DNA of 64,000 nucleotides from a bacterium. GTDB taxonomy: Bacteria > SAR324 > NAC60-12. A program made the translations under genes and the position numbers. The notes under the pieces were generated by a model. The model saw only the letters and a list, made by a program, of their open reading frames with translations, did no database searches and was not told the origin of the DNA. Positions 3,220 to 59,402 of this stretch are shown here, piece after piece. The number at the start of each line of letters is the position of its first letter. Position 1 is the first letter of the stretch. The stretch is taken from the NCBI GenBank assembly GCA_965233585.1, contig CBDDTI010000747.1:672001-736000 (forward strand), given 5' to 3'.

Positions 3220-4782
3220 ATGTCAAACAACCCTTTTGAATTTAAAATAGAACATCAACAAGTTTTCCTTCGGTTTCTCAAACCCTGCTCAGTTTCTAAA
3301 ATTCTTGAACCCCTGCAATATGAACTCTTCCAGTATGAGGTTGAGTATCTGCCAGACAGACTTTTGAAGCTGTCCCAAAATCAAAGTCAAACGTGGCAAT
3401 ATCTTTGCGAGTTTGGCAGCCGTCTTTATCAATACGAAGTCCGTCTTTCTCAAGGACACCATGAAGCCTATTTGACAATCGTCCCGCCCTTTCACGATGA
3501 CATTGAACCCCCAACTTTTGAGGAATTGCACCAAGTGTTAAAGCATCATGGGGTCTTGTCAGGCATTTTGGAATCAGAATGCCAAAAGATGCTACAAGAT
3601 GAAATTTTTTATGAACCTTGTCTTGTGGCAAAGTCTTCTCCTGCGGTGCAAGGGAACAATGGCAAACTTCAAATCATTTATCCTGCTGACAAACACTTCC
3701 ATCATTTACAGCAAATCAATTATCGTGAAAAAGGGACGTTGAGAACGGTTGTGCAAGGTGAATGGATTGCACGATTGATTCCCCCCACTACTGGGCAAGA
3801 TGGTTGGCTAGTCAATGGTCAAATTCTTTCTGCCAAAGCAGGCAAACCTTGTAGAGTGTATGCAGGAAAAGGGGTCACTTACAACCAAGACACTCATCAA
3901 TTTCATACAGAATCTGCAGGCTTTTTGCTTTTTGACAACAAACGATTGTCTGTGGAAAACATTTTGCGTGTGCCTTGTGTCAATCCAGAAATTGGCAATC
4001 TTAACTTTGATGGCAAGCTCTACATTGAAGGAGACGTGGAAGATGGCTATGAAGTCCGTGCCACTCAAGGCATTGAAGTCAAAGGAGTCGTTGGAAAGTC
4101 GTTGTTGGAAACCGATGGTTCTCTTTATATTCATGGGGGCGTCTGGGGTGCAACACTCCGTGCCAAGCAAATCATTTTTTTCCGTTTTGCATGTGATGCT
4201 AAAGTGCAACATGCCAGACACATCTACATTCAGCATTATGCCACGCACTGCGATTTGGAGGCTGAGGTGTCAGTCAAGGTGAAGGCACAAGATGGCTTCA
4301 TTTATGGTGGAAAAACAAGGGCAGGGCTTTTGATTTCTCTACCAAATGCAGGGTCTGAAAAGTGGGAAGTGACCAGCATCTTTCAAACAGGACTTTCTGC
4401 AAAAGAGGCTCAAACGTTGGCTTCTACTAAACAACAAGCTAAGCAACTTGAAGAATTTAAACGTCTGCGACACCAGTACATCAAACACCGTCAAAACATC
4501 AATCCCAAGCCCTTTCAAACGCTTTGTAACAACCTTCATGCACAAGCACGACTTCAACATCGTTTCAAGGAAACAGGGCATTCGTTCCAAGATGGAGTCA
4601 TTTTGGTCAATAATCACATCTTTCAAGGCAGTCAAATTCAAATAGGGCAGGCAGGCTATCTTGTCCAAACAGCACTCAAACATGTTGCTTTTATTGCACC
4701 CAAGTCCAAAGTCACCCCAACAGACATAGATGACCTAGACCTTCAAAAATTTCTCATTGCCAAATCACATCATGCAAATTGA
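3220..4782 (+). CDS. DUF342/FapA family protein
   Basis: Family-typical segments GVLSGI, VVQGEWIARLIPPTTGQDG and GNLNFDGKLYIEGDVEDGYEVRA (beta-solenoid). Confidence 0.8.
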   Translation: MSNNPFEFKIEHQQVFLRFLKPCSVSKILEPLQYELFQYEVEYLPDRLLKLSQNQSQTWQYLCEFGSRLYQYEVRLSQGHHEAYLTIVPPFHDDIEPPTFEELHQVLKHHGVLSGILESECQKMLQDEIFYEPCLVAKSSPAVQGNNGKLQIIYPADKHFHHLQQINYREKGTLRTVVQGEWIARLIPPTTGQDGWLVNGQILSAKAGKPCRVYAGKGVTYNQDTHQFHTESAGFLLFDNKRLSVENILRVPCVNPEIGNLNFDGKLYIEGDVEDGYEVRATQGIEVKGVVGKSLLETDGSLYIHGGVWGATLRAKQIIFFRFACDAKVQHARHIYIQHYATHCDLEAEVSVKVKAQDGFIYGGKTRAGLLISLPNAGSEKWEVTSIFQTGLSAKEAQTLASTKQQAKQLEEFKRLRHQYIKHRQNINPKPFQTLCNNLHAQARLQHRFKETGHSFQDGVILVNNHIFQGSQIQIGQAGYLVQTALKHVAFIAPKSKVTPTDIDDLDLQKFLIAKSHHAN

Positions 4783-7677: not shown

Positions 7678-8697
7678 TTAAGGAGCAGTCAAAACTTCAC
7701 TTTCTGTCTCACGTTCATTGATAAATTGATTAAATTCATTGGCTCTTTCTGTGACAGAATTATCTCCAACGCCTTGATTGATATAAGATGATTCTCTTGA
7801 GCGATTTTTGATGAACTCTTCAAACTTTGCTTGTTCCTGTGGGTTTCGTGTTTTGAAGTATTGAACGCCTGCTTTTTGTAAATCTTTTTGACGTTGTTTA
7901 ATGAAGTTTTGATACAAAACGCCTTTGCCTTGGTTTTTATTGACCGCCTTTTGACCGCCTTGATGTTTGACCTGAACTTTTTGATGATTGGCGACAAACT
8001 CGTCATATTTTTCTGCAACAGAATAATTCATTTTCTGCACATCTTCACGGTAAGAAACTGCCTCTTCGTTTCGTGTGGCGACAAACTTTTCGTAACGTTC
8101 CCGTAAATCAGTGCTTTTTTTAGAGGCAGGTCCTGTGAATGAAGTTTGCTTTTCTTGTTGATATTGTTGGTGTCTTGCTTGTCTGTCAAGCAATTCATTG
8201 AATCTTTTCAACTGGGTGTCAGTCTTGAAAGAAGACCCTTGAGCAGTGTTTTTGTCTAAATATTTTTGCGTCTCTTCTGCTTTCCTCATAAATTTTTGGA
8301 AGGCATCACGTCTTGTTTTTTGTTGAAACTGTCCATCAGGCACACGATTCTTATAAAAAGCCACAGACCTTTCGTGTTGTTCCTGAAACTTTCCCCAATC
8401 TTCTCGTTTGGAATCTTTAGTTAGCATCTGATTCCTCTTTCTCAATTCTTCTAGCTTTTGTTGATAAATCTCTTGCGCTCGTTCTTGTTGTTGCAAAAAT
8501 TGAGTAGAACGTTGAGACAATGACTCTGACTTGAGGTCGCGTTGTCGTTGATTTTCGTTGTTCAGCTTTTGTTCAGTTTGCCTAAGCCTTCGCAAATAAA
8601 TTCGGTCACTTGGGAACTCTTGCGTTGGCAATTCTGCCTGCCCATACACTATGAAAAGGACTGCGAACAAAAAAGCGGCTTTCAAAAATGGGTTCAT
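7678..8697 (-). CDS. secreted hypothetical protein, Q/K/E-rich with helical repeats
   Basis: Signal-peptide-like N-terminus (MNPFLKAAFLFAVLFIVYGQA), 339 aa, recurring [FY]xxF motif. Confidence 0.7.
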   Translation of the reverse strand: MNPFLKAAFLFAVLFIVYGQAELPTQEFPSDRIYLRRLRQTEQKLNNENQRQRDLKSESLSQRSTQFLQQQERAQEIYQQKLEELRKRNQMLTKDSKREDWGKFQEQHERSVAFYKNRVPDGQFQQKTRRDAFQKFMRKAEETQKYLDKNTAQGSSFKTDTQLKRFNELLDRQARHQQYQQEKQTSFTGPASKKSTDLRERYEKFVATRNEEAVSYREDVQKMNYSVAEKYDEFVANHQKVQVKHQGGQKAVNKNQGKGVLYQNFIKQRQKDLQKAGVQYFKTRNPQEQAKFEEFIKNRSRESSYINQGVGDNSVTERANEFNQFINERETESEVLTAP

Positions 8698-8740
8698 TGT
8701 GTTCTAAAAAAAACTCTTGAATCAAAGACATCTTGCTTGC

Positions 8741-8767
8741 TTATCGGCATTTCCCCAAAGAACATGA
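8741..8767 (-). promoter_or_regulatory. putative sigma28 (FliA) promoter for 7678-8697
   Basis: Minus strand reads TCAT-N15-GCCGATAA: perfect -10 box, imperfect -35 box, about 45 nt upstream of the ATG. Confidence 0.5.
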
Positions 8768-8909
8768 GCTTTTCAAACTATTCTGTCCAAACTCTTCTTT
8801 TGTTTATTTTGTTGAATAAATTAGCCTCTGATTGAAATCAAACTTGCTACTTCATTTCCCTCTACCTCACTCCCCTCAAAAAAAAATTCAAAAAATAATA
8901 AATATAGGC

Positions 8910-8937
8910 TTGCGTTTTTTTTTTGTACTTGCATAAT
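8910..8937 (+). promoter_or_regulatory. putative sigma70 promoter with a T10 tract in the spacer
   Basis: TTGCGT-16 nt-CATAAT, with a T run at 8915-8924 and an A-rich stretch upstream. Confidence 0.4.
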
Positions 8938-9026
8938 CTCGTTTTGTTGTTTTTCTCAAACTCTAATTTTGGATTTAACTAGAGGAGTTAGAGTTATTTT
9001 TTTAATCATTTAACCAAATAAATGTA

Positions 9027-9713
9027 ATGATGATTCCTGCAATTCAATTCGTCAAAAATTATCTTTCACTTCCTTTCAAAGGATTGCCCCAAGCATGTAG
9101 TTCGGCCTACTTAGAAATTTCTGAATTTCTTCTTGATGTCCCTCTTCATCTTATCAAAAGGCTGATACGGCTGACGCTTTTATTCCTTGTTGTTACTTTT
9201 TCTTGGATTCCAAACAGTTTTGGAGAACCCGCAGTTACTGGAATTGGATTAGGTACGACCTACGGTGGTACCTATGGAATTTTGGTGGCGGGTCCTTTGG
9301 GCAATTTAGAAGGACAGATTGTAGGTTTTGGTTTGGGACGGGTTGAATACCCAACAAAAGTTGAAGGAGAAGATAGCTCAGGTGAATTTGGATTAAGTGG
9401 GATGTGGGGTAAGTATTTTGAAGGACTTCCCAAATCTTACTATGGAGTTTCCGTGGGACCTGTTGCGTCTTATGCAGAAAATAAATGTACAAGATCTAGT
9501 AGCAGGTATAAGTGTAAGGGAAAGGGAGGTGTTTTATATGGTCTTAATTTAATCGTAGGAGGTTCCATCTGGGAGGATTTAAAAGGGTTTTACAGTGACC
9601 TTGGCGTTACAATCTGGTCTCAATCAGTTGAGTTTGAGATTTTTGGAAAGAAGTATAAGCGTGATGCTGTTGGTCGTTTAGTCTTTAGCATTGGATGGAA
9701 CTTAGAGAATTAA
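9027..9713 (+). CDS. hypothetical exported protein, probable small outer-membrane beta-barrel
   Basis: Gly/aromatic alternating strands and C-terminal LVFSIGWNLEN. The hydrophobic signal segment sits near aa 45-66, so the start is uncertain. Confidence 0.55.
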   Translation: MMIPAIQFVKNYLSLPFKGLPQACSSAYLEISEFLLDVPLHLIKRLIRLTLLFLVVTFSWIPNSFGEPAVTGIGLGTTYGGTYGILVAGPLGNLEGQIVGFGLGRVEYPTKVEGEDSSGEFGLSGMWGKYFEGLPKSYYGVSVGPVASYAENKCTRSSSRYKCKGKGGVLYGLNLIVGGSIWEDLKGFYSDLGVTIWSQSVEFEIFGKKYKRDAVGRLVFSIGWNLEN

Positions 9714-9838
9714 GTCACATATGTAGGTAAAAGTCTCATTGAAAAAAAGGAGGTGTCTCATGGTCTGAATTTACTCGTAAATGACTCATATCTCATAAAT
9801 TTAAATATTTTTAACTCTAAACTTAAAATAGGTTCACA

Positions 9839-10375
9839 ATGAAAATTTTAACATACATTAAAAATAACGCTGAGAGTTTAATGAACTCTTTTGGATTGTT
9901 TGGCTTCTTCCAAGGTTTTTTGAAAGGAACAAAAAAACTTGTTAGATCATTTTTGACCTTAGCTTTAGGAATGACCCTTATCTTTGTTCTAGCTGGGTGC
10001 GCTAAAGATGATGATGATTCTTCTGGTAGTGATGATGATGATCCTCATTTCAATGATCCTTATTTCAATAATCATTATGATGATGATAGTGATAGCCAAG
10101 TAACAATTTTAACCTTAAAAAATGAAACTAGTCAGCCCTTTGGTAAATTTTATATTTCTCCTAGCAGTTCTGATGATTGGGGAGACGATATGCTTCCAAA
10201 GACTTTGTGGCCAGGAGAGAAGTATAAATTTACTATTTCTGATTGTAATAAGGAATACGATTATAAATCAGTAGATTTTAAAGGTCGGGTGAGCATTATG
10301 AGAAGAGATTACGTGAAATGTGGTGAAGATTTTATTTTAAGAGTCCTTAGATTCAGAGACCGAGATGAATCTTAA
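9839..10375 (+). CDS. hypothetical lipoprotein with Asp-rich linker
   Basis: Lipobox LAGC followed by DDDDSSGSDDDD and a small beta domain (YISPSSSDDWGDDML). Start uncertain. Confidence 0.65.
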   Translation: MKILTYIKNNAESLMNSFGLFGFFQGFLKGTKKLVRSFLTLALGMTLIFVLAGCAKDDDDSSGSDDDDPHFNDPYFNNHYDDDSDSQVTILTLKNETSQPFGKFYISPSSSDDWGDDMLPKTLWPGEKYKFTISDCNKEYDYKSVDFKGRVSIMRRDYVKCGEDFILRVLRFRDRDES

Positions 10376-10516
10376 TCTCCTTAGATCTTTTAGTAATTAG
10401 ACTTCTTTAAGCTCTACAAAAATAAACACTCATTTAGGTAGATGATTTTTTTTGGAGTCACTGATTAGGGTTTTATCTAAACCCCCCAGCTTATCCAAGT
10501 AGTTTCCATCAAAGCA

Positions 10517-10568
10517 ACCTGACTGACACGCCCCCACAAAGAATGAACCACTTTCTGGTCAGTCAGGT
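10517..10568. repeat. 11-bp perfect inverted repeat with a 30-nt loop
   Basis: ACCTGACTGAC (10517-10527) and GTCAGTCAGGT (10558-10568) in intergenic DNA. Confidence 0.6.
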
Positions 10569-10868
10569 CTATCCCAATAGCCCTCTTTCAATTTCTAAAT
10601 CTCTTTTCTTTTTCTACTTTCCCATTTTTTTAAAATGGAGAAGTTCATCAAATGCCTTAATGACTAAAGGTTGATGATTCTATTCTGTTTGAAGACAGAT
10701 ATTAGCTTCATCTGTAAAGCCCTTTGTCCTTTCAAAAATTTTCTTTCTTTATTTTATTGATTGAATGCAGAATCTTCACAACGCAGGTGGTCTCTGAGCA
10801 GTTTTGACGTTCTTTGGCAATTTTTTAAAAAAGAGACTGCTTGAGTTAGGACTAGTTGATTCAGAAAG

Positions 10869-10884
10869 TGGTATGTTCTTTGCA
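10869..10884 (+). promoter_or_regulatory. putative sigma54 (-24/-12) promoter of the 10931-18102 operon
   Basis: TGGTATGTTCTTTGCA has GG-N10-GC spacing and is close to TGGCACG-N4-TTGCW. It lies 46 nt upstream of the ATG. Confidence 0.6.
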
Positions 10885-10930
10885 AAAGGTATCGTGTCAG
10901 TCAGAACGATGTTAAAATAGGATTGAATCT

Positions 10931-12022
10931 ATGAAAAGGCAATTTTTAGTTATTGGTTTACTTGTTTGGTCAACGATTCTCTTTGCTCAGGAGCAAGAAG
11001 AGGTCATTCCTGACTCAGAGACAGAGAACTCTTCAGAAGAAGGTTGGAAGAGCAAGTGGAATGACCCCCGTATGAGACAACTTGAAGAGATTTCAGGAAA
11101 GCTGGAGACTTTAATGAACAAGCAAGTCAATGTGTCTTCTGCCGCAGTTTACGAGGTGCGTTTTTCCCCACAGATTGACAAGAATTTTAGGCAAGCGGCA
11201 TTGAGCAAGATGTATCAAGTCTTTAGCCGTGTTCCAGATTTTTATGCCGCACGTTGTGATGAATGCTTTCAAATCCGTACTAAAGTGTCAGGTAACACTT
11301 TGCGTGTAAGTCGTGGGATTGCAGACCCTGAACATCGGCGTAAAATTGCAAGACGTATGAACACAGAAGGATTTATGAAGATCATCATCTCCCAAGTAGA
11401 TCAACAACTTTCTGTTGCCATTGAAATTTACGGGGCAAAGAATGGACAGCTTCTTTTTAGTGAAGTGGTGGCAGGAACGCCTCCCATTCCTGAACCCAAT
11501 GCCTTTGATTTGTATGTAGGTCAAATGAGGTTTGACGTTGCCTTTGAGTCTGAGTCTGCAGATTTTTCCGAAACACAAACCTATCAGCTACCAACTTTGA
11601 CGTTTGGAAAGTCTTATCAAATTCTGGAACATTGGTATTTTACAGGAGACATTAGCATTTTGGCGGATATAAGTCAGAAAGAAGAAGATGCACCGGAGGT
11701 CACTGGGGGCTTTTCAGGACTTGCCTTTTATGGAAGAAGTATTTACGACTTTATCAATATTGGTGTCAATGACAATGTCAGTTTTGGACTCATTACAGGG
11801 ATTGGGCAATGGCTTTCTCCACAGCTCAAATTCCCTGTTTTGTATGCTGTGGGGTTGCGTATGATGATGGGCAGGACTTTCTTGTTTAACTTTGAATACA
11901 TTTCTACTGAAATTAAAGAGGTTCAAGCCACATACACCGACCCAGAAACAGAAGAAGAAGTGGAAGACATGAAAGCATCTGTCAATTCCGCAACCAGTGT
12001 CTCTTTAGGAATCCGTTTTTAG
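10931..12022 (+). CDS. exported protein with predicted C-terminal outer-membrane beta-barrel
   Basis: Signal peptide (MKRQFLVIGLLVWSTILFAQ), CxxC (RCDEC), amphipathic beta strands and a terminal beta-signal-like SVSLGIRF. Confidence 0.65.
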   Translation: MKRQFLVIGLLVWSTILFAQEQEEVIPDSETENSSEEGWKSKWNDPRMRQLEEISGKLETLMNKQVNVSSAAVYEVRFSPQIDKNFRQAALSKMYQVFSRVPDFYAARCDECFQIRTKVSGNTLRVSRGIADPEHRRKIARRMNTEGFMKIIISQVDQQLSVAIEIYGAKNGQLLFSEVVAGTPPIPEPNAFDLYVGQMRFDVAFESESADFSETQTYQLPTLTFGKSYQILEHWYFTGDISILADISQKEEDAPEVTGGFSGLAFYGRSIYDFINIGVNDNVSFGLITGIGQWLSPQLKFPVLYAVGLRMMMGRTFLFNFEYISTEIKEVQATYTDPETEEEVEDMKASVNSATSVSLGIRF

Positions 12023-12025
12023 GAA

Positions 12026-13636
12026 ATGATCATGAACTTACAAACTCAATTTTCAGTTGCTCTTTTGACTAGCCTTGCACTTGGGGCGTGTTCTTCAAAA
12101 AGTGATATTGAAGTAGAACAGAATCCAAATACTTCTCGTGTGATCTATACGCATACAAGAAAAAATGAAGTGGTTACAGTGACGGAAGAAAAAACCAAAG
12201 ATGAACATTTGATTCGTGTCAATATAGAACGTGATGGTGAGGTTTCAGAGGCAGTGCATCAAATCCAAGAGCATAATTTTGTCTTTGAAGTGCCACTGAG
12301 AGAAGCCCCTGCTGGAGTATTGGCAAGGAAAGTTGCAGACTATGAAGCCTACATTCAAAAAATCTTTTATGAAGAGATTGCCCAGCACATCTCCACTCAA
12401 CGTTTCACAACGACTGTCAGGGTGTCATGGGATGCGGGTCAGCTAGATACGTTGGATTCTAACTATGACGACCTCAAAACGGACACCTCACAAGTAGATG
12501 TCAGACTAGGCAGTGCCATTTCAAAACTTGATGTGTCAGTCTTGATAGATCAAGGGTTGCCCTCTCGCTATGATGAATTTGTCAAACAACTGATTTTGGC
12601 ACAATATTTTTTCCGTCCTACCAGAGGAGATGCTTTTGAAGTCAGACGTGCCGTGTTTCCTGCCCAAGACTTTTTAGGCAATGACTTTCAATCACGGCTT
12701 TTGACTTATGAATCAGAGGTTCGTCAAAGGTTTGACCAAACTTTAAATCAACACATTGACCCAGAAAATTTTGAAGTTTCATCAAGAATTTTTTGGAATC
12801 AACAAAAACTAGAAGACCTCAAGTTCCAATATCAAAAAGACTCTGGACAACGTCAATCTTCGCAAGATGTTCAATTTGTGACGGCTGTTGACAAACTGCA
12901 AGTAGCAGTCTTATTGGATAGGAATTTATCCAAAGAAAATGATGAATTTGTCAAGTCTCTTGTCTCTGCGCAAGCAGATTTTCAGCAGGACAGAGGAGAT
13001 GAGGTCAAGGTGCAACGAATCATCTTTCCTGCCAAAGGTTCTGTTGGTGTGACGCATAGTGAGAAGTTGGAGAAAACCTTGCGAGACCTCTTGACCAGCT
13101 ACATTGCACCTAAAAACTTTTTTGTTAAAGTTCAACTCTTACCCCCGAAAGAAGCAGACCAAGCAGGCAGGGCGCCTATCCATGTTGGAGTGGTTTTGAA
13201 TGACTTGCTTGACCCAAAAATTGATGACTTTGTCAGGCAAATCATTCCTTTTACTTTGAATACTGATGAAGAATACGGAGACGTCATAGAGGTGACTCGC
13301 AAACGATTCCCCGAAAATCCTGAAATCTCTCAACAAACCGCAGTTTCCAGCCCTAGCACCAATGACGTTGCTCAAACCCAAGAGGTTCAAGACATCTTTG
13401 AACAAATCAGGATTTATTATGAACAAATGGATTATGACAATGCTTTGGAATTGACTCAAAGGGCATTGATTATCGCATCTGACCGTGAGCAAAAAGTGAA
13501 ACTGCTCAAGATGAAGGGGTCTTTGCATTACTTGTTGCAAGAGCCTGAAAATGCACGCAGGGCGTGGAATGAAGTGTTACGGATTGAACCCAGCGATGAG
13601 GAAGCTAAACAATCTTTAAACATGATTGACTCATGA
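12026..13636 (+). CDS. lipoprotein with three FliF C-terminal (RBM3)-like repeats and a C-terminal TPR
   Basis: Lipobox LGAC-S. Repeats end in TRGDAFEVRRAVFP, DRGDEVKVQRIIFP and EYGDVIEVTRKRFP, each preceded by a KLxVxVL(I/L)D-like strand. TPR helices at the C-terminus. Confidence 0.7.
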   Translation: MIMNLQTQFSVALLTSLALGACSSKSDIEVEQNPNTSRVIYTHTRKNEVVTVTEEKTKDEHLIRVNIERDGEVSEAVHQIQEHNFVFEVPLREAPAGVLARKVADYEAYIQKIFYEEIAQHISTQRFTTTVRVSWDAGQLDTLDSNYDDLKTDTSQVDVRLGSAISKLDVSVLIDQGLPSRYDEFVKQLILAQYFFRPTRGDAFEVRRAVFPAQDFLGNDFQSRLLTYESEVRQRFDQTLNQHIDPENFEVSSRIFWNQQKLEDLKFQYQKDSGQRQSSQDVQFVTAVDKLQVAVLLDRNLSKENDEFVKSLVSAQADFQQDRGDEVKVQRIIFPAKGSVGVTHSEKLEKTLRDLLTSYIAPKNFFVKVQLLPPKEADQAGRAPIHVGVVLNDLLDPKIDDFVRQIIPFTLNTDEEYGDVIEVTRKRFPENPEISQQTAVSSPSTNDVAQTQEVQDIFEQIRIYYEQMDYDNALELTQRALIIASDREQKVKLLKMKGSLHYLLQEPENARRAWNEVLRIEPSDEEAKQSLNMIDS

Positions 13637-14703
13637 AATATCTGATTTTTATTATTCTTTTACTGACTGCACCAGTCATGCTTTTGGCTCAACAAGAAGT
13701 CAGAGACCAAGCTGATGACATCTTTCAGCAACTGATGGGACAAGATGCTCCATCAAGAGAAGAAGGAGAGGCTGAACCGACTCAAACGGCTGAAGCACCA
13801 CAGGTGGAAGCAGAAGCAGAGCCTGAAAACTCTCAACAACCTGCTAACTCTGAAAATGAAGTCACACAAGAGCAAGACTCTATCACGCCTTTGCAACTGC
13901 AAGAGATGTTGCGAGCATCTATCAAACAAGAAATCAAAATTCCTGATGAGGCTCAACGTCAGTTTAATGACAAACAGCTTAGTCAAAAAGTGAAAGAGTT
14001 CTTAAAACTTTCATTGTCTGAAAGACTCATAGATGTCGTGGTGGACACTCGTTACATTGTGCAGTTAGTTCCCATTGTGAAAAAAAGTAGTCAACTTCAA
14101 AAAATCAAATTGCCCGGTTTTGAAAACTACGTTTGGACTCCTGCATTTAAAAATCATAACTTATCGTTTTCTTATCAAACCAGACCTTACCGTACTTATT
14201 TTATTCTTCTCAATGGTCCAAAGACCCTTGTCAACTACGATTTGGTTCAAAAACGCATTGTTGAAATAGACCCTACTACCGATTGGGAAAATCGGGATTT
14301 GCTGAGAGTGATCAATGTTTCTTACGAGACACCTGAATCTTCCCCTTTGCAGATTGCTCAACAAAAACAGACTCAACAAGAAGAAATTCCCCAAATAGAA
14401 CCCAAAGAGGCAGTGCCAGCACCCCTTTCTTTGGAAGAACAGTTGGAACAGGAGAAGCAGTTTAGTAAACACTTGCTTTCTGCAAGAGATGAGTTTTTTA
14501 AGGACAATTTAGATGCGGCATTGGATAACCTGATTGAAGCCATCAAGTTTAATCCTAAATCTGCTCAAGCCTACGAGATGCTTGGCTCTGTTTACTATCG
14601 TTTGGATTGGAAGGAGAAGGCATTGCATTACTGGGGAAAGTCATTGGAACTTTACCCAGATAATAAGACTTTACAAAGATATTATGACAATTTGAGACAA
14701 TGA
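13633..14703 (+). CDS. exported protein with a divergent FliF-like ring domain and C-terminal TPR
   Basis: Signal peptide, Q/E-rich linker, LSQKVKEFLKLSL...VVVDTRY...KLPGF segment and a clear TPR (AIKFNPKSAQAYEMLGSVYY). Confidence 0.65.
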   Translation: MKYLIFIILLLTAPVMLLAQQEVRDQADDIFQQLMGQDAPSREEGEAEPTQTAEAPQVEAEAEPENSQQPANSENEVTQEQDSITPLQLQEMLRASIKQEIKIPDEAQRQFNDKQLSQKVKEFLKLSLSERLIDVVVDTRYIVQLVPIVKKSSQLQKIKLPGFENYVWTPAFKNHNLSFSYQTRPYRTYFILLNGPKTLVNYDLVQKRIVEIDPTTDWENRDLLRVINVSYETPESSPLQIAQQKQTQQEEIPQIEPKEAVPAPLSLEEQLEQEKQFSKHLLSARDEFFKDNLDAALDNLIEAIKFNPKSAQAYEMLGSVYYRLDWKEKALHYWGKSLELYPDNKTLQRYYDNLRQ

Positions 14704-16499
14704 AATGGTCAGCTATGAAACTGTGGCAACTTCTGCTTGCATTTTTGTTGGCATCGTCTGTTTTTGCACAAGAACGAGTGCCTTCTTTGCAACAGTATGA
14801 ATTAGGGCTTGAAAGTAAGATTCGCAGAAATTTAGAACACTACTTACAACCTAAAGACTATGTGTTGCGTGTGTCAGCACTAGGCAGTCCTTATGTTGCC
14901 CAAGAGATTTCTCCAACAACTCAAGTTGCTCAACCTGTTGAAAGTTTGCCCGGATTTTCTGCAGACCCTCCAGAAACACCAGTTGTTCAACAGATTCCTA
15001 AATCAAACACTCCAACACTTTGGGAGGTCTCCAGAGTTCAAATAGACCTTATCATGCACAAAGAGATTTCCTCTTCTTTGCAAGAATATCTGTTAAGGTC
15101 TGTTCCTTTGATTGCTGGATTGATTCCAGAGCGAGGCGATGCTTTTAATTTCCTACCAATCACCCCCAATGAAGTCATTAAACTTGAACCAGAAGAAGAA
15201 GCACCTGTTGAACCCTTAGAAAATTTGGAAGAAGAGCCACTTGTTGAACCTTTGACATGGTATGAACAACTTCATCAACAATATGGCATTTGGACTTGGG
15301 TTGCTTTGGGTGTAGTCGTATTCTTGTTTTTATTGCTTCTCATTTTATTGTTCAGACGTCCTAAAAAAATGGTTGAACAACCTGTGCAACAAGCAACACC
15401 TGATTTGAAACAACAGTTTGAACAAGAAAAACAAGAGGTTGAAAAGGAACGCACCAAAAAGATGCAAGACTTCTTTGCCCAAGAAGAACAAACCAAACTT
15501 GTTCAAGAGATTGTCAAAGAATTGATAGGACATGAAGATTGGAAAACAGAGCTTGTCCATGAATGGAGTAAAGGACGTAAAGACAAACTTCCTTTGCTGA
15601 TTTGTGCTTTGGGAACATTCACCTCAAGAAGTCTCTTTGCTAAGGTTCTGGGGTCATCTGTGTATGGAAAACTGGAACGAACCGCCAACGATTTGTCTCC
15701 TCAAGATTCAGAAATCGCTGACATTCTCAAAGAATCCTATGACTTCATCAAAGCCAAAAGTATTGACACCCCTCAAAAATATCAAAATGACCCGTTCCGT
15801 TTTTTAGATGAGTTAAGTCCTTCACAAGTCAGTTTTTTGGTGAAAGATGAACCCATCAGAATCAAAGCGATTGTGTTAAGCCGTCTGAACAGTGAGGGTG
15901 TCTCGCAGATTCTCAAAAAAATGCCTCCAGATGAACAATCGCAAGTTTTGATTACGATAGGCAATTTACATGAATTGCCCCTTGACCTGATTGAAGGGGT
16001 GGCAATGGAGTTAACCTCTAAATTGCCTGACTTGCCTGACGAAAACACAGCCTCTTTTGATGGGGTGGACATGTTGGCAGACCTCATCACTTTTGCTGAC
16101 AATCAAACAAGAAGGGACATTTTGAAACAGCTTAAACTCAATGACCAAAAGCTAAGTCTGAAAGTAGAAGAGCGAAGTTTTGTTTTTGAATCTATCCCTT
16201 TGATTCCCAAAGAAGTTTTAACAGAAGCGGTAAGACGCATGAACTCTGATGATGTTTTGACAGCATTTGTTGGGGCAGATCGTGAAATCCAGAAAGCAGT
16301 CATCTTGTGTTTTAATGAGACAGTGCGTGGCAATATGGTCTCTCAACTCAAAGCCAAGTCTCCAACTGCTGGTGAGATTGATGATAAGAAACGATTGTTT
16401 GTGGCACAAATCAGACAACTAGCAGACGAAGGAAAGATTGCCCTCAAAGACCTTTATCTGAACTGGCAAAAACGAAGCAGAAAAGCAAGAGTCGCCTGA
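14700..16499 (+). CDS. fusion: FliF-like periplasmic ring domain, TM helix, FliG middle and C-terminal domains
   Basis: YELGLESKIRRNL...GLIPERGDAFNF (FliF-like), then TM WVALGVVVFLFLLLLILLFRR, then DPFRFLDELSPSQVSFLVKDEPIRIKAIVLSRL (FliG-M) and SFVFESI...IRQLADEGKI (FliG-C). Confidence 0.8.
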   Translation: MKWSAMKLWQLLLAFLLASSVFAQERVPSLQQYELGLESKIRRNLEHYLQPKDYVLRVSALGSPYVAQEISPTTQVAQPVESLPGFSADPPETPVVQQIPKSNTPTLWEVSRVQIDLIMHKEISSSLQEYLLRSVPLIAGLIPERGDAFNFLPITPNEVIKLEPEEEAPVEPLENLEEEPLVEPLTWYEQLHQQYGIWTWVALGVVVFLFLLLLILLFRRPKKMVEQPVQQATPDLKQQFEQEKQEVEKERTKKMQDFFAQEEQTKLVQEIVKELIGHEDWKTELVHEWSKGRKDKLPLLICALGTFTSRSLFAKVLGSSVYGKLERTANDLSPQDSEIADILKESYDFIKAKSIDTPQKYQNDPFRFLDELSPSQVSFLVKDEPIRIKAIVLSRLNSEGVSQILKKMPPDEQSQVLITIGNLHELPLDLIEGVAMELTSKLPDLPDENTASFDGVDMLADLITFADNQTRRDILKQLKLNDQKLSLKVEERSFVFESIPLIPKEVLTEAVRRMNSDDVLTAFVGADREIQKAVILCFNETVRGNMVSQLKAKSPTAGEIDDKKRLFVAQIRQLADEGKIALKDLYLNWQKRSRKARVA

Positions 16500-17470
16500 T
16501 GCTAGAAAGAATCATCACCTTCTTTGGAATTATCATAGGAATTGGATTAATTGGCTTTGGGATTGTTTGGCCTGATAAATATTCTAATGCCTATCTTTAC
16601 AACATTGCACTGATGGAAGCAGACATCAAAGCGATGCAAGAGGCACGGACTCCTTTTGCACAAGTGCAGGCTAAAAGGAGGGAATTGGAAACCTACCGCG
16701 AATCTATTCCTGCCAATGTGGCTCGCTTTCTTGATTTGAAATCTTTTGTCATTGTGTTTGGTGGGTCTTTTGCCGCCTTGCTCATTGCTTTCCCTGCCAG
16801 AAAATCACTGCGGGCATTTTTGTTCATCTCCTCTGCTTTTTTTGGCAAAGACAAGCAAGGGTCAGAATTTGCAGAATACTACAGCACCTTTGTCAAATTT
16901 TCTGAAAAACTCTCTGCACGGGAACTCATCACCGACGAAGACTTTGCATCAATTGAAGACAAAAGACTTCGGGAATGGTTAGAGTACTTCACTGCATCAG
17001 ATTCTGTGCCTGAGGAGATGATTCAAGAAATTATTCGCTCTGAAATTGCCGCCGTAGAACGTACATCAGAAGAAGAGGCAGAACTCCTTGACTTTATGTC
17101 TAAGGTTGCACCTGCATTTGGCATGATTGGAACGGTCATTGGTTTGATTTTGATGCTCGGCAATGTGAATGCAGATGACATTGATATTTTTAAAATCATT
17201 GGTGCAATGGGAGTCGCTATGATTACAACACTTTATGGGGTGGCAGTAGCAAATCTTATCTTCACTCCGATTGCTACCAAACGAAGAAGCCTGATGTATT
17301 CAGAATTGTATCTGATGGAAATGGCAAGAGAGGGAATCCTTTATCTCAAAAACAAACAAACTCCAGAACTTGTCTCAAGAGACCTTATTATTTATTTGCC
17401 AGATAGGATTAGACAACGAATTGAGCAAGAGAAGTTAGAAAAACTCAAATCAGGTGATTTAGGTCTATGA
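16499..17470 (+). CDS. motA: MotA/PomA-like stator A subunit with a periplasmic insertion
   Basis: FLDLKSFVIVFGGSFAALLIAFP, APAFGMIGTVIGLILML and AMITTLYGVAVANLIFTPIATK motifs. Confidence 0.85.
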   Translation: MLERIITFFGIIIGIGLIGFGIVWPDKYSNAYLYNIALMEADIKAMQEARTPFAQVQAKRRELETYRESIPANVARFLDLKSFVIVFGGSFAALLIAFPARKSLRAFLFISSAFFGKDKQGSEFAEYYSTFVKFSEKLSARELITDEDFASIEDKRLREWLEYFTASDSVPEEMIQEIIRSEIAAVERTSEEEAELLDFMSKVAPAFGMIGTVIGLILMLGNVNADDIDIFKIIGAMGVAMITTLYGVAVANLIFTPIATKRRSLMYSELYLMEMAREGILYLKNKQTPELVSRDLIIYLPDRIRQRIEQEKLEKLKSGDLGL

Positions 17471-18102
17471 GAAAGAATGTAGGAGAATCAACATGGATGG
17501 TCACTTATGCAGACATGGTCACCTTGCTGTTTATCTTCTTCATCTTGTTGACTGCCATCTCTGCACGTCCCAAAAACTGTAAAAATATCAGTGATTACAT
17601 GGCATCTAATCCACAGAATTTTGCCAACTACGAGCTTCGTGCTACCAAATTACAATGTATCATTTCTCTCCCTCAGGATTTTTTGTTTTCTTCAGGCGAG
17701 GCAAAGCTGAAAGAAGGGGCATTGCGTGAGTTATCCCCTTTTTTTCAAATGATCAAAAACCTTCCTGAACACCAAGAAGATTTAGTCGTGGTAGAAGGAC
17801 ACACTGACAATGTACCAATCCGCACCAAAGAGTTCCCAAGCAACTGGGAGTTAAGTTCGGCTCGTTCTCTTTCTGTGGCAAGGTTTCTGGTGGACCGTCT
17901 TGGATATGCCCAAGAGACAGTGTCAGTCAAAGCCTTTGCAGACACCCGCCCCAAAGTCCCCTATCAAGACCCCTACAATCGCCCACTCCAAGGAAATGAG
18001 CTTAAAAATGCAAGAAAAGCGAACAGACGCATTGAAGTCCTCATCATAGACCAACCCCGCTCCAGAGAAGATGCCAGCATCCTCTTTCAAACTGTCCAAT
18101 AA
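17467..18102 (+). CDS. motB: MotB/PomB-like stator B subunit (short), OmpA-like peptidoglycan-binding domain
   Basis: WMVTYADMVTLL with the conserved Asp, VEGHTDNVPI, SNWELSSAR and NRRIEV. Confidence 0.88.
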   Translation: MRKNVGESTWMVTYADMVTLLFIFFILLTAISARPKNCKNISDYMASNPQNFANYELRATKLQCIISLPQDFLFSSGEAKLKEGALRELSPFFQMIKNLPEHQEDLVVVEGHTDNVPIRTKEFPSNWELSSARSLSVARFLVDRLGYAQETVSVKAFADTRPKVPYQDPYNRPLQGNELKNARKANRRIEVLIIDQPRSREDASILFQTVQ

Positions 18103-18148
18103 GCCTACCTTTTAGTGAAGTCAAACAATGACTAGCACCTCAAACGTT

Positions 18149-20050
18149 CTATGGAAGGATTGGTAAGGATTCTGCCAAAGTAGATTTGAAAAAAATGACT
18201 TGCGGTGCAAACAACAGTGTTTGTTCTTGTTGCAAATAGGAGTCACTTTGAAAACTTGCAGAATTGAGAGAGTGCAGTTGTTTTAGATGAAAGAGTGCAT
18301 CATCATTTCGTTGTGTTTGGGCATAGATGAGGCTTAATCGTTGTAAAAAGATGTCATGTTGCAAAGTGGATTGTCGTCTTTGAAGGAAAGAGACAAGCAG
18401 TTGTTCTGCTTCTTGAAGCATTCCCATCTTGACGTAAAGCAGGCTTAAATCGTCAATCAAAGAGACTTGTTCAGGGAACAACTGATACCCTTGCTCGTAA
18501 ATCTTTTGTGCTTCTTTGTCTTGTTTAAGATATTGCAACGCCCGACCTGCTTGTAAATGCAACAAACCTGCTCCTTTTTTTGCGTTGAGAAAGGGCTGCA
18601 AATAAGTCAAAGTGTTGTCATAGCGTCCCATTTGATTGAGAATGCTGGCGTGAAGATAAGCAATGTCTTCACTGGATTGTTTTGACAAATTTTGGGTCAT
18701 AGCAAAGGCTTGCTGATAACGTTTTTGAAAGTAAAGCAGTCTTGCCAAAGTAAATCTGACTTTGGGAGTGTCTTGAAGTTCTTGCAGTTGCAAGGTCAAT
18801 TTTTCTGCAAGTTCATACTGACCACGCAAGATGTAAAGGTCTATTTGCAAATGCAATAATTGTGGGTCAAGTGAAGATTCTGCTTGCATTTCATTGAGTG
18901 CATTTTCCACACGGTTCCAGTTTTGGGTTTGCATGTCTCTTTGAATTTTAAGCATCTGATAACGTTGGTTGCTAAAATCCAACTCCAATGCTCTAGCAAG
19001 CTCATTGTCTCCTTGTAAAGTGTTGCCTTCCTTGAACAAAACCAGTGCCAGTAAATATCTTGCTTCTGCCTGCATTTCATCTATTTCCACAGAACGTCTC
19101 AACCAGATTTTTGCCTCTTCAAATTGGTCTTGATACAGAAAGACTGATGCCAATAACACCATGCTTTTTGCATCAAGTGGAACGTCTTCTAAAAGATTTT
19201 GCAAAGTTTGTTGTGCAAGAAGCCACTTCTTTTGTTTGATGGCAATGCGGGCAAGAATTTGTCTTTCTAAGACACTATAAGGTTCTTGGGTTTGTGCAAG
19301 AATCGCTTTGTCGTTTCCTTGTAAAAAGAGAATTTTCAGTAAATATTCCTTCGCTTTGGCAAGGGTTGGTTCGTCTGCCAATAATTGTTGAACTAAGACT
19401 TTGGCATGGTAATAATTCCCTTGTAGCATCTGAATTTGCACCTCTAAAAGCCGATATTCTGGATTGCTTGGTTCAAAGAGTAGGACATTTTTCAAATGAT
19501 TTTCTGCCACTTCAAAGTCACGTTGTTTGATGTTGAGTCTTGTCAGATAGGCTTGAATTTCTAAGGTAGGTCCTGAACGTTGCAATGCCACTTCCAATGC
19601 GCCAATAGCACGTTCGTTGTCTCCAATCCTCTCATAAGTCATTGCCAGTTTGAGGTAGGCAGAGATGAGGTCACGGTCTAACTTAATGGCTGTGTTCAGG
19701 GAGTCAATAGCACGGCTATACTTCTTATTTTGATACGCAATGCTTCCTAATAGCTCAAAGTAAATTCCAACGATGGGAGAAAGGCTTAACGCTCTTTGAA
19801 TGTTCAGTTCCGCTTGTTCTAAATTTTGTTGTTCAAAATAAGCCAACGCTAGCTGATAGTATGCAACGGCGTCATTCTTGTTATTCTGAATGCGGGTTTG
19901 TTGTTCAGTAATAAACTGTTCTTTCTGTAATGCGTCCATTCTCTCAAACTGTTCAAGCGTCGTTGGAGAGGTGCAAGCAAGGCTTAAGAAGCACAAAAGA
20001 CTAAGGACGTGTGATGGTATAGGTTTGAGAAGGCGAGCTTTCATTGCCAT
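18149..20050 (-). CDS. TPR-repeat lipoprotein
   Basis: Lipobox SLAC and many TPR-like helical repeats (AYYQLALAYF, AYLKLAMTYERIG). Confidence 0.8.
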   Translation of the reverse strand: MAMKARLLKPIPSHVLSLLCFLSLACTSPTTLEQFERMDALQKEQFITEQQTRIQNNKNDAVAYYQLALAYFEQQNLEQAELNIQRALSLSPIVGIYFELLGSIAYQNKKYSRAIDSLNTAIKLDRDLISAYLKLAMTYERIGDNERAIGALEVALQRSGPTLEIQAYLTRLNIKQRDFEVAENHLKNVLLFEPSNPEYRLLEVQIQMLQGNYYHAKVLVQQLLADEPTLAKAKEYLLKILFLQGNDKAILAQTQEPYSVLERQILARIAIKQKKWLLAQQTLQNLLEDVPLDAKSMVLLASVFLYQDQFEEAKIWLRRSVEIDEMQAEARYLLALVLFKEGNTLQGDNELARALELDFSNQRYQMLKIQRDMQTQNWNRVENALNEMQAESSLDPQLLHLQIDLYILRGQYELAEKLTLQLQELQDTPKVRFTLARLLYFQKRYQQAFAMTQNLSKQSSEDIAYLHASILNQMGRYDNTLTYLQPFLNAKKGAGLLHLQAGRALQYLKQDKEAQKIYEQGYQLFPEQVSLIDDLSLLYVKMGMLQEAEQLLVSFLQRRQSTLQHDIFLQRLSLIYAQTQRNDDALFHLKQLHSLNSASFQSDSYLQQEQTLLFAPQVIFFKSTLAESLPILP

Positions 20051-29434: not shown

Positions 29435-30199
29435 TTAGGAATGAGAATTGTGCCAGTGTTCAAAAAGTCGCATATAGTCTTGGATGACTTTTTCTGGGGG
29501 TAATTCCAGACTTTTGGAATAACTTTGTAAGAATCCTTTGACATAGACTGCGGCAGAAGGTAAAGACTTAAAATTCTCATCTTCAATCGCTTGCAAATAG
29601 ACCAGTCGGACACAAATATCTTTGGCAATTTCTGAAAGGTCAATTTGTTTGATTTCACGGACTGTCCGCAAGGCTTCTCCATTGAAACAAGCAATAGATG
29701 CAATGAAGTTATCAGCCTGTTCTTGGGAGACGCGGTTTTTATAATTAAGTAACTTTCGTTGCCTTAAACGATCGGAAGAATATTTGCGGGTCTCTCCGTT
29801 GGTAAACACTTTGACAGCAGGTGTATTTTTAATGATTAAAGGAGATTCCATATCTTCTTCTTCCACAACTTCTGGGGTGGAATTGTTCTCTACAAGGAAC
29901 AAAGTAGGGGCTTTTTTAGGGGTGGCTTGGTTTTGGAGTTTGTAATCATAATTTTTCCGAGAAATAGGGTCGCTCAAAATCATGTAGGCTTCCGTAATTC
30001 TTCTTAAAATTCCATCTGACTCTTCTGCAGAAAACAGGGAATAAGAAGCAAGAGAGTTCTGCTCAAACGTCTGTATAGCGATCTCGTATGCCTCTCTAAT
30101 GGCTTTTTCACTGGCATCAGAACACAAGCCTAACAATTCATAATAATTCTCTTTGTTTTTATTTTGCTGCTTGTGCTTGTTTAAAACATTGAATTGCAT
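29435..30199 (-). CDS. J-domain-like plus RodZ-type HTH protein
   Basis: NYYELLGL...IREAY and EAYMILSDPISRKNYD (J-like, no HPD), then GEALRTVRE...YLQAIEDE...YVKGFLQSY (HTH). Confidence 0.75.
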   Translation of the reverse strand: MQFNVLNKHKQQNKNKENYYELLGLCSDASEKAIREAYEIAIQTFEQNSLASYSLFSAEESDGILRRITEAYMILSDPISRKNYDYKLQNQATPKKAPTLFLVENNSTPEVVEEEDMESPLIIKNTPAVKVFTNGETRKYSSDRLRQRKLLNYKNRVSQEQADNFIASIACFNGEALRTVREIKQIDLSEIAKDICVRLVYLQAIEDENFKSLPSAAVYVKGFLQSYSKSLELPPEKVIQDYMRLFEHWHNSHS

Positions 30200-30200
30200 A

Positions 30201-31130
30201 CTATAAAAAGTGATCTGGTTTGAGATAGTTGTTACGGATCAAATTATCGCAAATCTGATGGAGTCCTTCTTGGATTGGTGAGTCTGTCTGTTGCATCATC
30301 AAAGGCTTTCGCTGCACAATAGACTTCCAAACCATTGTGCTGTGTTCCACATATCCTGCAAAATCAAAACGGATTCCGAAGTATTTATGACAGGCTTGTT
30401 GCATAGCGAATCCAATTCTACGGTCATGTTCATTACGAATTTGATTTAACACAAGTTTAGGGCAAAATTGTGCCACTTGTTCCTTTGTAAAATCAGAATA
30501 ACCATGGTCTGATAGGTAGTTTAATAGCTCATTAGGGGTTCTCACGCCTGAAATGTTGTCGCGATACATGACAGTGTAGAGAATCTCTTTGATGTTTTTA
30601 TCGTGGGCGTTGTATCGGATTTGACGATAAAATCCACTCTTGATAAAACGATACGCATTTTCAACGGCTGTTGGTTCAGGAATGACTACAAGAATTTGCA
30701 CATCTGCCAACAAGAAGAAGTCCAGTGTATTGAAGTTAGAACCTGCACCTAAATCTAAGATGACATAATCGGCATCTAAGTTTTTGATAGCCTTGAGGAT
30801 TCTTATTTTTTGGGCGTGACGCAAGTTCGTAATTCCGACAGCATCATGTGCGCCACTAATTAGCTTCAAGTTTCTTACAGGAGTTGGACATGCAACATTT
30901 GCTAATTCTTTCACTTCATGGTTAAGGAAGTGTGAAAGTCCTTTCTGTGGATTGGCAACACCAAGGCAGGTATGCAGATTTGCCCCCCCTAGATCACCAT
31001 CAAACAAAACAACATTAAAGCCTTTGTGAGTTAATGCGATAGCAAGGTTACTGCTGATAAAACTTTTACCAACACCCCCTTTGCCTCCTCCAATTGCCCA
31101 AATCTGTGGTTGTGTCATATCATGCGTCAT
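30201..31130 (-). CDS. MinD/FlhG-like ParA family ATPase
   Basis: GGKGGVGKS deviant Walker A, DGDLGGANLHT, DLGAG and PEPTAVENAY motifs. Confidence 0.85.
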   Translation of the reverse strand: MTHDMTQPQIWAIGGGKGGVGKSFISSNLAIALTHKGFNVVLFDGDLGGANLHTCLGVANPQKGLSHFLNHEVKELANVACPTPVRNLKLISGAHDAVGITNLRHAQKIRILKAIKNLDADYVILDLGAGSNFNTLDFFLLADVQILVVIPEPTAVENAYRFIKSGFYRQIRYNAHDKNIKEILYTVMYRDNISGVRTPNELLNYLSDHGYSDFTKEQVAQFCPKLVLNQIRNEHDRRIGFAMQQACHKYFGIRFDFAGYVEHSTMVWKSIVQRKPLMMQQTDSPIQEGLHQICDNLIRNNYLKPDHFL

Positions 31131-57683: not shown

Positions 57684-58112
57684 TTAGTTTTGGTGTAAAA
57701 CATACTCTTCTTCAAACACTTCTTGCCACGAAAGGCTTTGAACCGTTGATTTTAAATCTGTTTCATCTTCTGCCTTTTCAGTTGCATTTTTAAGACAATC
57801 TTCCCAAACCGTTTCCATAAAGTTTTCATTAAGTGAAGGTGAATCTTTTCTAATTCTTATAATCTGCCTTCTTGTCTCATTGATAGAATTTCTCCAACTT
57901 TTGGAACGATGAGAAGGCTGAATCTTCCACTTAATGACATGAGTCATCAAAACAATGAGATAGCTCGCAATGCTCCGTTTATCCTTTCTTGCCATGTATT
58001 CAATTTCTTCAATGAGATTCTCCACGTCCAAATGTTCAAATTTTCCTACTCGTATCAAATTGGCTTGATGTTCTGCCCAGAGGACAAAATCTTGTTCGTA
58101 TAAATTAGTCAT
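57684..58112 (-). CDS. DUF29 family protein (copy 5)
   Basis: LYEQDFVLWAEHQANL...LDVENLIEEIE...SWRNSI...SPSL...AEDET signature. Confidence 0.88.
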   Translation of the reverse strand: MTNLYEQDFVLWAEHQANLIRVGKFEHLDVENLIEEIEYMARKDKRSIASYLIVLMTHVIKWKIQPSHRSKSWRNSINETRRQIIRIRKDSPSLNENFMETVWEDCLKNATEKAEDETDLKSTVQSLSWQEVFEEEYVLHQN

Positions 58113-58542
58113 CTTTTTGACTCTCTAAAAGGTATTCTTCTTCAAAAACTTCTTGCCAAGAAAGGCTCTGAACTGTTGATTTTAAATCTGTTTCATCTTC
58201 TGCATCTTCTGTTCCTCGCTTAAAACATTTTTCCCAAATACTTTGAATGTAACTCTCATTTAATGAAGGGAGGTCATCTCTAATCCTACTAATAGATTTT
58301 CTTTCATTTCTAATAGTGTTTTGCCAGCTTTTAGAACGTTCCTGAGGTTGAATCTTCCACTTGATAATGTGCATCATAAGAACGATCAAATGACTTGCTA
58401 AACTCTTTTTTTCTTTTCTTGCCATGTACTCAACTTCTTCAATGAGATTCTCGGTGTCTAATTGTTCAAACTTGCCTGAACGTATTAGATTGGCTTGATG
58501 TTCTGCCCAGAGAACAAAATCTTGTTCGTACAAATTAGTCAT
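58105..58542 (-). CDS. DUF29 family protein (copy 4)
   Basis: Same signature, 8-nt overlap with the next copy. Confidence 0.88.
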   Translation of the reverse strand: MTNLYEQDFVLWAEHQANLIRSGKFEQLDTENLIEEVEYMARKEKKSLASHLIVLMMHIIKWKIQPQERSKSWQNTIRNERKSISRIRDDLPSLNESYIQSIWEKCFKRGTEDAEDETDLKSTVQSLSWQEVFEEEYLLESQKDD

Positions 58543-58972
58543 CTTTTTGACTCTCTAAAAGGTATTCTTTTTCAAAGACTTCTTGCCACGAAAGGCTTTG
58601 AATTGTTGATTTTAAATCTGTCTCTCTTTCTGCTTTTTTGTTGGCTTTTATAAAAGTATTGTTCCAAATAGTTTTGATAAAATTTTCGTTTAGCGATGGT
58701 GTATCTTCTTGTAATTCTTCAATTTCATCTCGTGCATTATAAATGGAGTTTCTCCAACTTGTAGAACGATGGGAAGGTTGAATCTTCCACTTGATGATGT
58801 GCATCATAAGAACAGTCAAATGACTTGCTAGGCTCTTTTTTTCTTTTCTTGCCATGTATTCAATTTCTTCAATGAGATTCTCCACGTCCAAATGTTCAAA
58901 TTTTCCTACTCGTATCAAATTCGCTTGATGTTCTGCCCAGAGGACAAAATCTTGTTCGTACAAATTAGTCAT
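58535..58972 (-). CDS. DUF29 family protein (copy 3)
   Basis: Same signature, 8-nt overlap with the next copy. Confidence 0.88.
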   Translation of the reverse strand: MTNLYEQDFVLWAEHQANLIRVGKFEHLDVENLIEEIEYMARKEKKSLASHLTVLMMHIIKWKIQPSHRSTSWRNSIYNARDEIEELQEDTPSLNENFIKTIWNNTFIKANKKAERETDLKSTIQSLSWQEVFEKEYLLESQKDD

Positions 58973-59402
58973 CTTTTTGACTCTCTAAAAGGTATTCTTT
59001 TTCAAAGACTTCTTGCCACGAAAGGCTTTGAATTGTTGATTTTAAATCTGTCTCTCTTTCTGCATCTTCTGTTGCGTCTTTAAAACATTCTTTCCAAATA
59101 CTATTGATAAATGTTTCATTGAGTGAAGGCATTTTTTTTCTGCTCCTTCTGATTTGTTTTCTTGCCTCGTGAATTGTTCCTTGCCAACTACTTGAACGTT
59201 CTTGAGGTTGAATCTTCCACCTAATAATGTGCATCATCAATCGGATCAAATGACTTTCTAACGTGTCTTTATGACGATTCCCCATGTCTTCAACTTCTTC
59301 AATGAGATTCTCGGTGTCTAATTGTTCAAACTTACCTGAACGTATTAAGTTAGCTTGATGTTCTGCCCAGAGGACAAAATCTTGTTCGTACAAATTAGTC
59401 AT
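58965..59402 (-). CDS. DUF29 family protein (copy 2)
   Basis: Same signature, 8-nt overlap with the next copy. Confidence 0.88.
   Translation of the reverse strand: MTNLYEQDFVLWAEHQANLIRSGKFEQLDTENLIEEVEDMGNRHKDTLESHLIRLMMHIIRWKIQPQERSSSWQGTIHEARKQIRRSRKKMPSLNETFINSIWKECFKDATEDAERETDLKSTIQSLSWQEVFEKEYLLESQKDD

Follow-up and report, generated by a model that had tools for sequence, protein, structure and literature searches.

Six tightly coupled genes lie on the forward strand of the window, the whole stretch of 64,000 nucleotides that was analysed. They encode a barrel protein A (10931-12022, 363 aa), B (12026-13636, 536 aa), C (13633-14703, 356 aa), D, which is a FliF-FliG fusion (14700-16499, 599 aa), and MotA (16499-17470, 323 aa) and MotB (17467-18102, 211 aa), both of the flagellar type. 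A gap of 3 nt separates A from B, and the following junctions are overlaps of 4, 4, 1 and 4 nt. A putative sigma54-type site, TGGTATGTTCTTTGCA, starts at 10869, 62 nt upstream of A, and ends at 10884 on the same strand; the pattern TGG-N8-TTGCA is the -24/-12 consensus of sigma54. The first-pass annotation had described six tightly coupled genes behind such a site, and the ORF coordinates, the junctions and the upstream pattern bear this out. It had also noted the absence of rod, hook and export-gate genes from the window, and none of the 59 window proteins that were scanned matches those families. This absence is weak evidence alone, since flagellar genes are scattered in this genome. A frame artefact or gene decay is ruled out by intact orthologues in 22 of 40 relatives.

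The surroundings of the operon present several further features. Inverted repeats lie upstream, one at 10517-10568 with 11-nt perfect arms 30 nt apart, and two (10519-10904 and 10537-10882) whose 12- and 21-nt arms pair with positions in and immediately behind the sigma54-type site; these repeats are unique in the genome. No Rfam family matches within positions 8500-20000. Two upstream genes on the same strand (9027-9713 and 9839-10375) have no Pfam or NCBIfam match, look barrel-like and lipoprotein-like by eye, and were not seen next to the cassette in any of 20 relatives. Elsewhere the window holds a FapA (DUF342-type) gene at 3220-4782, a gene at 7678-8697 on the reverse strand for a 339-aa coiled-coil-like protein rich in Q, R and K (signal peptide, no Pfam match), a MinD/FlhG-like ATPase adjoining a DnaJ-HTH gene at 29435-31130, and five DUF29 genes in tandem at 57684-59877.

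Protein D joins ring and torque domains in one polypeptide. Its signal peptide is followed by a FliF-RBM3-like domain (residues 26-157), one TM (200-218), a helical linker and a FliG-like region (approximately 279-582), in which Pfam recognizes FliG_M (4e-11) and FliG_C (4e-12) and in which a FliG-N part is assigned by alignment. From a comparison by eye, we infer that the segment ahead of the FliG-N-like part may resemble the C-terminal helix of FliF. The predicted structure (pLDDT 86.3, pTM 0.41, from an alignment of 113 rows) was compared with known folds. Residues 26-157 match the FliF ring 8z5v (Z 13.1, rmsd 3.3, 94 residues), the M domain matches FliG-M 4fq0 (Z 13.7, rmsd 1.4, 80 residues) and the C domain matches FliG-C 1qc7 (Z 11.2, rmsd 1.8, 88 residues), so the likeness to FliF (RBM3) and FliG proposed for the fusion protein stands on structural grounds as well. 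Profiles of D match RBM3 of the genome's own FliF at 1e-8 to 1e-10 and its RBM1/2 only at about 0.01, and 112 of the 113 D-family rows have a single RBM. D has one TM, not the two TMs and RBM1-RBM2-RBM3 of flagellar FliF; with RBM1/2 missing, it would provide no housing for an export gate. The FliM-binding motif in FliG-M is EHPQ. This motif is present in the genome's canonical FliG and in none of the 113 D homologue rows, which makes a FliM/FliN switch unlikely. Recent derivation of D from the genome's own FliG is rejected on the 19% identity between them and on a FliG tree (quick version) that places fused and canonical sequences on two sides (SH-aLRT 92; a single fused row falls on the canonical side). 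Two ORFs make up D in one genome (L164, G457), and in another D is trailed by a second RBM-TM fragment (L039:7031-7615).

Two further proteins carry ring domains in the periplasm. B is a lipoprotein (LGAC, Cys22) with a small N-domain, three RBM3-like repeats (approximately 97-214, 221-338 and 342-433) and a C-terminal TPR, and Pfam finds YscJ_FliF_C (2e-8) plus TPR. A profile of the periplasmic domain of D matches all three repeats (2.6e-8, 2.9e-13 and 3.9e-7); repeats 1 and 2 are identical at 41 of 116 positions, and three close homologues of B also have three repeats. Outside the family of the window, SAR324 genomes have two proteins in place of B: a lipoprotein with TPR, and an RBM-TPR protein that carries one or two repeats. 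C consists of a signal peptide, an acidic linker, a diverged RBM with an LPG loop (approximately 100-236) and a TPR, the last being its sole Pfam match. The C of the window is below the reach of the profile of the periplasmic domain of D; 18 other C-family proteins match it at 2e-6 to 2.8, mostly weakly. Alignment of the C-family and D-family profiles gives a probability of 92.8 (E 4e-7) with the LPG loop common to both, and L160-P161-G162 and D222 of C are invariant in 18 sequences, which suggests that C carries one diverged RBM related to that of D. One operon may therefore hold up to five RBM domains (three in B, one each in C and D). The number of B-type repeats is one, two or three according to SAR324 lineage, in addition to the RBMs of C and D.

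Protein A would be the outer-membrane end of the system. It has a signal peptide, a periplasmic domain (49-184) with a CxxC that resembles LpoB, CsgG and TolB-N, and an 8-stranded barrel (187-363). In its predicted structure (pLDDT 90.2), the barrel matches NspA 1p4t (Z 16.2, rmsd 2.3, 139 residues) and the periplasmic domain matches LpoB 4q6l (Z 10.2, rmsd 4.0, 124 residues); atlas neighbours of A carry LpoB/CsgG. The barrel foreseen in the first-pass annotation is there, as one half of a two-domain protein. The outer-membrane pore that it was thought to form is rejected, as the barrel is of the NspA/OmpA type. Because this barrel is narrow, A reads as a probable anchor rather than a pore in the model.

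The stator genes are of the flagellar kind. MotA (MotA_ExbB, 5e-23) has its best NCBIfam matches to MotP (2e-41) and PomA (1e-30) versus TolQ (2e-4), all below the cut-off. It aligns through its cytoplasmic domain with the genome's own flagellar MotA, and between TM1 and TM2 it carries a periplasmic insert, about 45 aa long, as do 14 of 14 operon-type MotA rows. A FastTree phylogeny sets the cassette stator apart from ExbB with support 99; with two flagellar rows only, the single-clade status of cassette stators is outside its reach. MotB presents a TM with a conserved Asp (YAD, D16), a plug, a short linker and an OmpA-like peptidoglycan-binding domain (MotB_plug 7e-13, OmpA 1e-13). In the available text of PMC12505986, a plug and an OmpA-like domain in the B subunit are traits of a flagellar-type stator (FIT), and MotB has both. 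The same type is further defined by an A subunit with an unbroken TM3 and a torque interface of four or five helices, and by ion-driven rotation of a FliG ring. An ExbD/TolR-type B subunit was not found (ExbD 0.14 versus MotB_plug 7e-13), and no TonB or TolA match occurs among the six proteins.

These parts argue for a flagellum-independent, ion-driven, envelope-spanning rotor-stator machine, a reading that we regard as probable. The charges of torque transmission, at positions in D and MotA that we take from E. coli numbering, are in part lost or displaced in SAR324 and better conserved elsewhere. All 23 SAR324-like D rows lack the acidic pair of the FliG torque helix, and only 8 of these 23 retain its basic position, versus 84 of the 90 other rows; at the corresponding columns of MotA, Glu is kept and Arg is not. 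The divergence in SAR324 could be compensation or loss of torque. Alternatively, the cassette might be a non-rotating transducer of the Ton/Tol logic. MotAB would then pull on a fixed scaffold of D, C and B, or ratchet it, so that the outer membrane is remodelled or held in place or an uptake step is gated. The diverged torque charges, the lipid anchor of B and the resemblance of A to LpoB, TolB-N and OmpA-type anchors fit such a device. The M and C domains of FliG are nevertheless kept at low rmsd, the basic position persists in nearly all rows outside SAR324, and the plug and OmpA-like domain of MotB are, in the text available (PMC12505986), flagellar-stator traits; we consider a non-rotating device unlikely.

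Flagellar genes are scattered through other parts of this genome, among them canonical fliG, fliF-fliH-fliI, two fliM, flhA, flagellins and a further two motA, and the separate fliF, fliG and motA that the first-pass annotation had said to look for are thus present. The operon accordingly comes in addition to a flagellum, and the possibility that it is the genome's only flagellar motor is rejected. Its isolation from flagellar genes is normal for this genome. The dispersal extends to fliG alone, fliF-fliH-fliI without fliG, a motA that has no motB, and a motB-like pair that has no motA (L012, L013, L015, L170). A full orthologue of D (E below 1e-50) is present in 22 of 40 relatives; operon-type MotA accompanies it in 21 of these 22 and occurs in 1 of the 18 others. 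Loci were fetched for 20 of the 22 carriers; 18 have the order A-B-C-D and the other 2 end at contig edges. In these loci motAB lies behind D twice and ahead of A seven times; 8 loci have it unlinked, and in 3 it is unplaceable. Homologues of C that bear a name are assigned to SAR324 or Lambdaproteobacteria, which points to this lineage. Relatives also hold a second cassette (L050-L056, L062), with a divergent D, a MotA and a MotB of about 520 aa, which was not found in the genome of the window; porin-like, FecR and very large (1100-1700 aa) lectin-/Ig-type surface-type proteins are encoded downstream of it. In G008, genes that come after a cassette (L049:13684-18000) appear to resemble a contractile-tail sheath and tube set.

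The SAR324 unit could, alternatively, serve the flagellum or swimming, with spare stators and accessory periplasmic rings or as a landmark. RpoN is present in the genome, and a sigma54-type pattern lies within 250 nt of the first gene in 21 of 23 SAR324 loci (15/17 and 6/6), against a background of 0.018-0.03 per random 250-nt window. A stricter form, selected after the site in the window had been seen, occurs ahead of 11 out of the 2255 ORFs that the four largest contigs hold, and these include the operon, fliF, two rod genes and cheW. C is present in 43 of 88 SAR324-phylum genomes, and 42 of the 43 carriers have FlhA; among FlhA-less genomes 1 of 11 carries C, and that one lacks flagellin and retains canonical FliG. 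There is also a precedent in Bdellovibrio, where three stator pairs all serve one flagellum, according to a citing passage in PMC12827227. Against a flagellar accessory speak at least 34 SAR324 genomes that have FlhA and lack C, the lack of RBM1/2 and EHPQ in D, and the persistence of the core without flagella elsewhere (see below). Moreover, the association of C with FlhA is not independent, because the genomes are related and several of the FlhA-less ones are small. Such a flagellar role is, in our judgement, somewhat less probable again than the non-rotating device. For the rotor-stator machine, the near-constant co-occurrence and the type of site common with flagellar genes mean that independence from the motility programme is not established in SAR324, a point that the first-pass annotation did not raise.

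Outside SAR324 a core of D, barrel, TPR lipoprotein, MotA and MotB is widespread. Fusions of about 550-780 aa are common among the 50% representatives, and atlas clusters of the fusion are most frequent in Balneolota, Bdellovibrionota, Pseudomonadota, Bacteroidota and Elusimicrobiota, with Fibrobacterota names also appearing. Plasmids gave only canonical FliG-like partial matches, and one 55-residue match in a single-protein scan of genome contigs was discarded as spurious. In one other phylum, which includes a record labelled Bacteroidales, a scan that scored three candidates per genome found a full-length D match in 45 of 401 genomes. Both FlhA and flagellin are absent in 31 of these 45 carriers (genomes of unstated completeness), and 7 of the 31 have one contig of about genome size. 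In two such carriers that were tested, the only FliG_C matches are the fusions themselves. Core operons in non-flagellated genomes, which the first-pass annotation had suggested looking for, are thus found, and in these 31 carriers dependence on export-gate, rod and filament genes was not seen. The predicted conservation of gene order holds both in SAR324 relatives and in outside loci, which come mainly from one superphylum. Among non-SAR324 loci with room, 49 of 55 have motA and motB beside D; motAB is absent in 5 metagenome loci with room. The metagenome scan was seeded with a clade of 17 sequences, and its 52 loci sample this clade and neighbouring ones only.

Two features set the SAR324 form apart. 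Among the lineages compared, a sigma54-type site upstream of the cassette is seen only there (the pattern occurs in 1 of 45 loci from metagenomes and in 0 of 9 further loci outside SAR324). Free periplasmic RBM proteins are likewise seen only in SAR324, and 0 of 72 loci outside it carry an extra RBM protein; the extra ring proteins thus appear from sequence to be a SAR324 addition to a widespread five-gene core, a point absent from the first-pass annotation. That the RBMs, up to five per operon and with a likeness of RBM3 to SpoIIIAG in the part of PMC4768692 available, stack into a secretion or transport conduit energised by MotAB (SpoIIIAG- or SctJ-like) is very improbable, given the absence of extra RBMs from all 72 outside loci, the mere 8 strands of the A barrel, and the lack of ATPase, export gate and secretin in the operon and among its conserved neighbours. 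In the other phylum, a paralogous cassette (one clade; 10 of 20 loci fetched) has chaperone-usher-like genes in place of the barrel. This cassette (L139, L142, L150-L157) lies directly behind DUF4402-like, PapD-like and approximately 1000-aa usher-like genes, and it encodes a long MotB; the one such MotB that was scanned has a SPOR domain. The usher-like matches are weak (Usher in 2 of 9, best 3e-4; DUF4402 in 2 of 8; PapD_N 7e-4), and PDB sequence searches with the putative chaperone and usher returned no such match.

Among the known systems that come close to the cassette is the flagellar motor core (FliF MS-ring, FliG and MotA5B2/PomA5B2). Alike are the RBM3 fold, the TM, the M and C folds of FliG, and a MotB with plug, Asp and OmpA-like domain. 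Unlike the flagellar motor, D is a single fused chain that has a signal peptide and only one TM and lacks both RBM1/2 and EHPQ; rod, hook, export and switch genes are not linked; and soluble RBM-TPR proteins, an outer-membrane barrel and the periplasmic insert of MotA are added. Tested for membership, the cassette appears to lie outside the flagellar motor, with working parts that resemble the flagellar core. The type IX secretion/gliding motor (GldLM-GldKN) and Agl-Glt pass ion-driven force to an outer-membrane ring or adhesin. With these the analogy is functional only, as none of the six proteins matches Gld, Por or Glt families in Pfam or NCBIfam. Zorya ZorAB is a MotAB-like motor outside flagella, with weak matches here to ZorA (2e-5) and ZorB (3e-17). 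Zorya identity is rejected on the short MotA (323 aa versus ZorA models of 461-545 positions) and on the lack of ZorC/D/E among nine proteins scanned; a FliG partner is, in addition, present. ExbBD-TonB and TolQR-TolA, which the available text of PMC12505986 treats as generic ion transporters, likewise link an inner-membrane ion motor to outer-membrane partners, whereas the cassette stator scores as flagellar type and its partner is a FliG-bearing predicted ring protein in place of a TonB/TolA rod. Among published cases, the closest is the natural FliF-FliG fusion of Chlamydiaceae, also outside a working flagellum, which, in the portion of PMC4768692 available, is about 330 aa long with two TMs, no SpoIIIAG-like (RBM3) domain and only the FliG-M region; D keeps RBM3, FliG M and C, and its own stator. 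A literature search, with most subscription papers and supplements outside its scope, returned no published description of the cassette, and the supplements of PMC12505986 and PMC13277936 may list such stators or FliG copies.

With the domain identities, linkage and distribution of the cassette in hand, its best reading is a switchless, ion-driven trans-envelope rotor that acts on an outer-membrane surface complex. D would use its RBM3 and FliG domains to polymerise as a ring in the membrane, with no export-gate housing and no switch, and peptidoglycan-anchored MotA5B2 units would turn or strain this ring in one direction; the retained RBM3 and FliG and the linked flagellar-type stator point to such a ring. 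The soluble RBM proteins C and B, arranged as additional rings or as a sleeve, may then pass the force on to a complex at the outer membrane that is formed by the lipid anchor and TPRs of B together with A. In SAR324, the unit would be switched on with the sigma54 motility programme. The output is most likely mechanical work done on a structure at the cell surface that serves attachment or surface movement, a tentative proposal that is drawn only from the sister cassettes with their usher-like genes and large surface-type proteins. Several points count against the rotor. The lipid anchor of B would tie its RBMs to a membrane, and a static sleeve fits as well as a shaft. The operon has no output gene and no peptidoglycan-opening enzyme. 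The torque-helix charges are diverged, 42 of 43 SAR324 carriers keep FlhA, and motAB is unlinked in 8 of 20 loci. The self-contained rotor-stator apart from the flagellum that was proposed at the outset is supported in part: the folds of D, the gene order, the separate canonical genes and the carriers of the core that lack flagellin and FlhA elsewhere speak for it, and its outer-membrane pore is rejected. None of the three outcomes named in the first-pass annotation as contrary to it (no FliF/FliG match, no synteny, these genes as the genome's only motor) was obtained.

FliG is regarded as a flagellum-only torque ring. Plug- and OmpA-type stators are tied to flagellar motility in the available text of PMC12505986. 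If the present reading is true, a FliF-FliG fusion that is conserved, comes with a stator of its own and occurs in flagellum-less genomes would be a new ion-driven envelope machine, and FliF-RBM3, FliG and MotAB would be a minimal, self-sufficient motor. A bolder form, which we hold with distinctly less assurance than the machine itself, is that of a second rotary motor geared through FliG, flagellum-independent and spread over several phyla, in which ring-domain duplication in SAR324 has given a periplasmic stack of variable length to an outer-membrane anchor that moves or spins a surface structure. The SAR324 form, with its series of ring-domain numbers and a candidate regulator, would make ring stacking directly testable. 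A natural minimal rotor-stator would offer a test of how the flagellar motor arose or was reused, and annotations of fliG and motAB can mislead about swimming.
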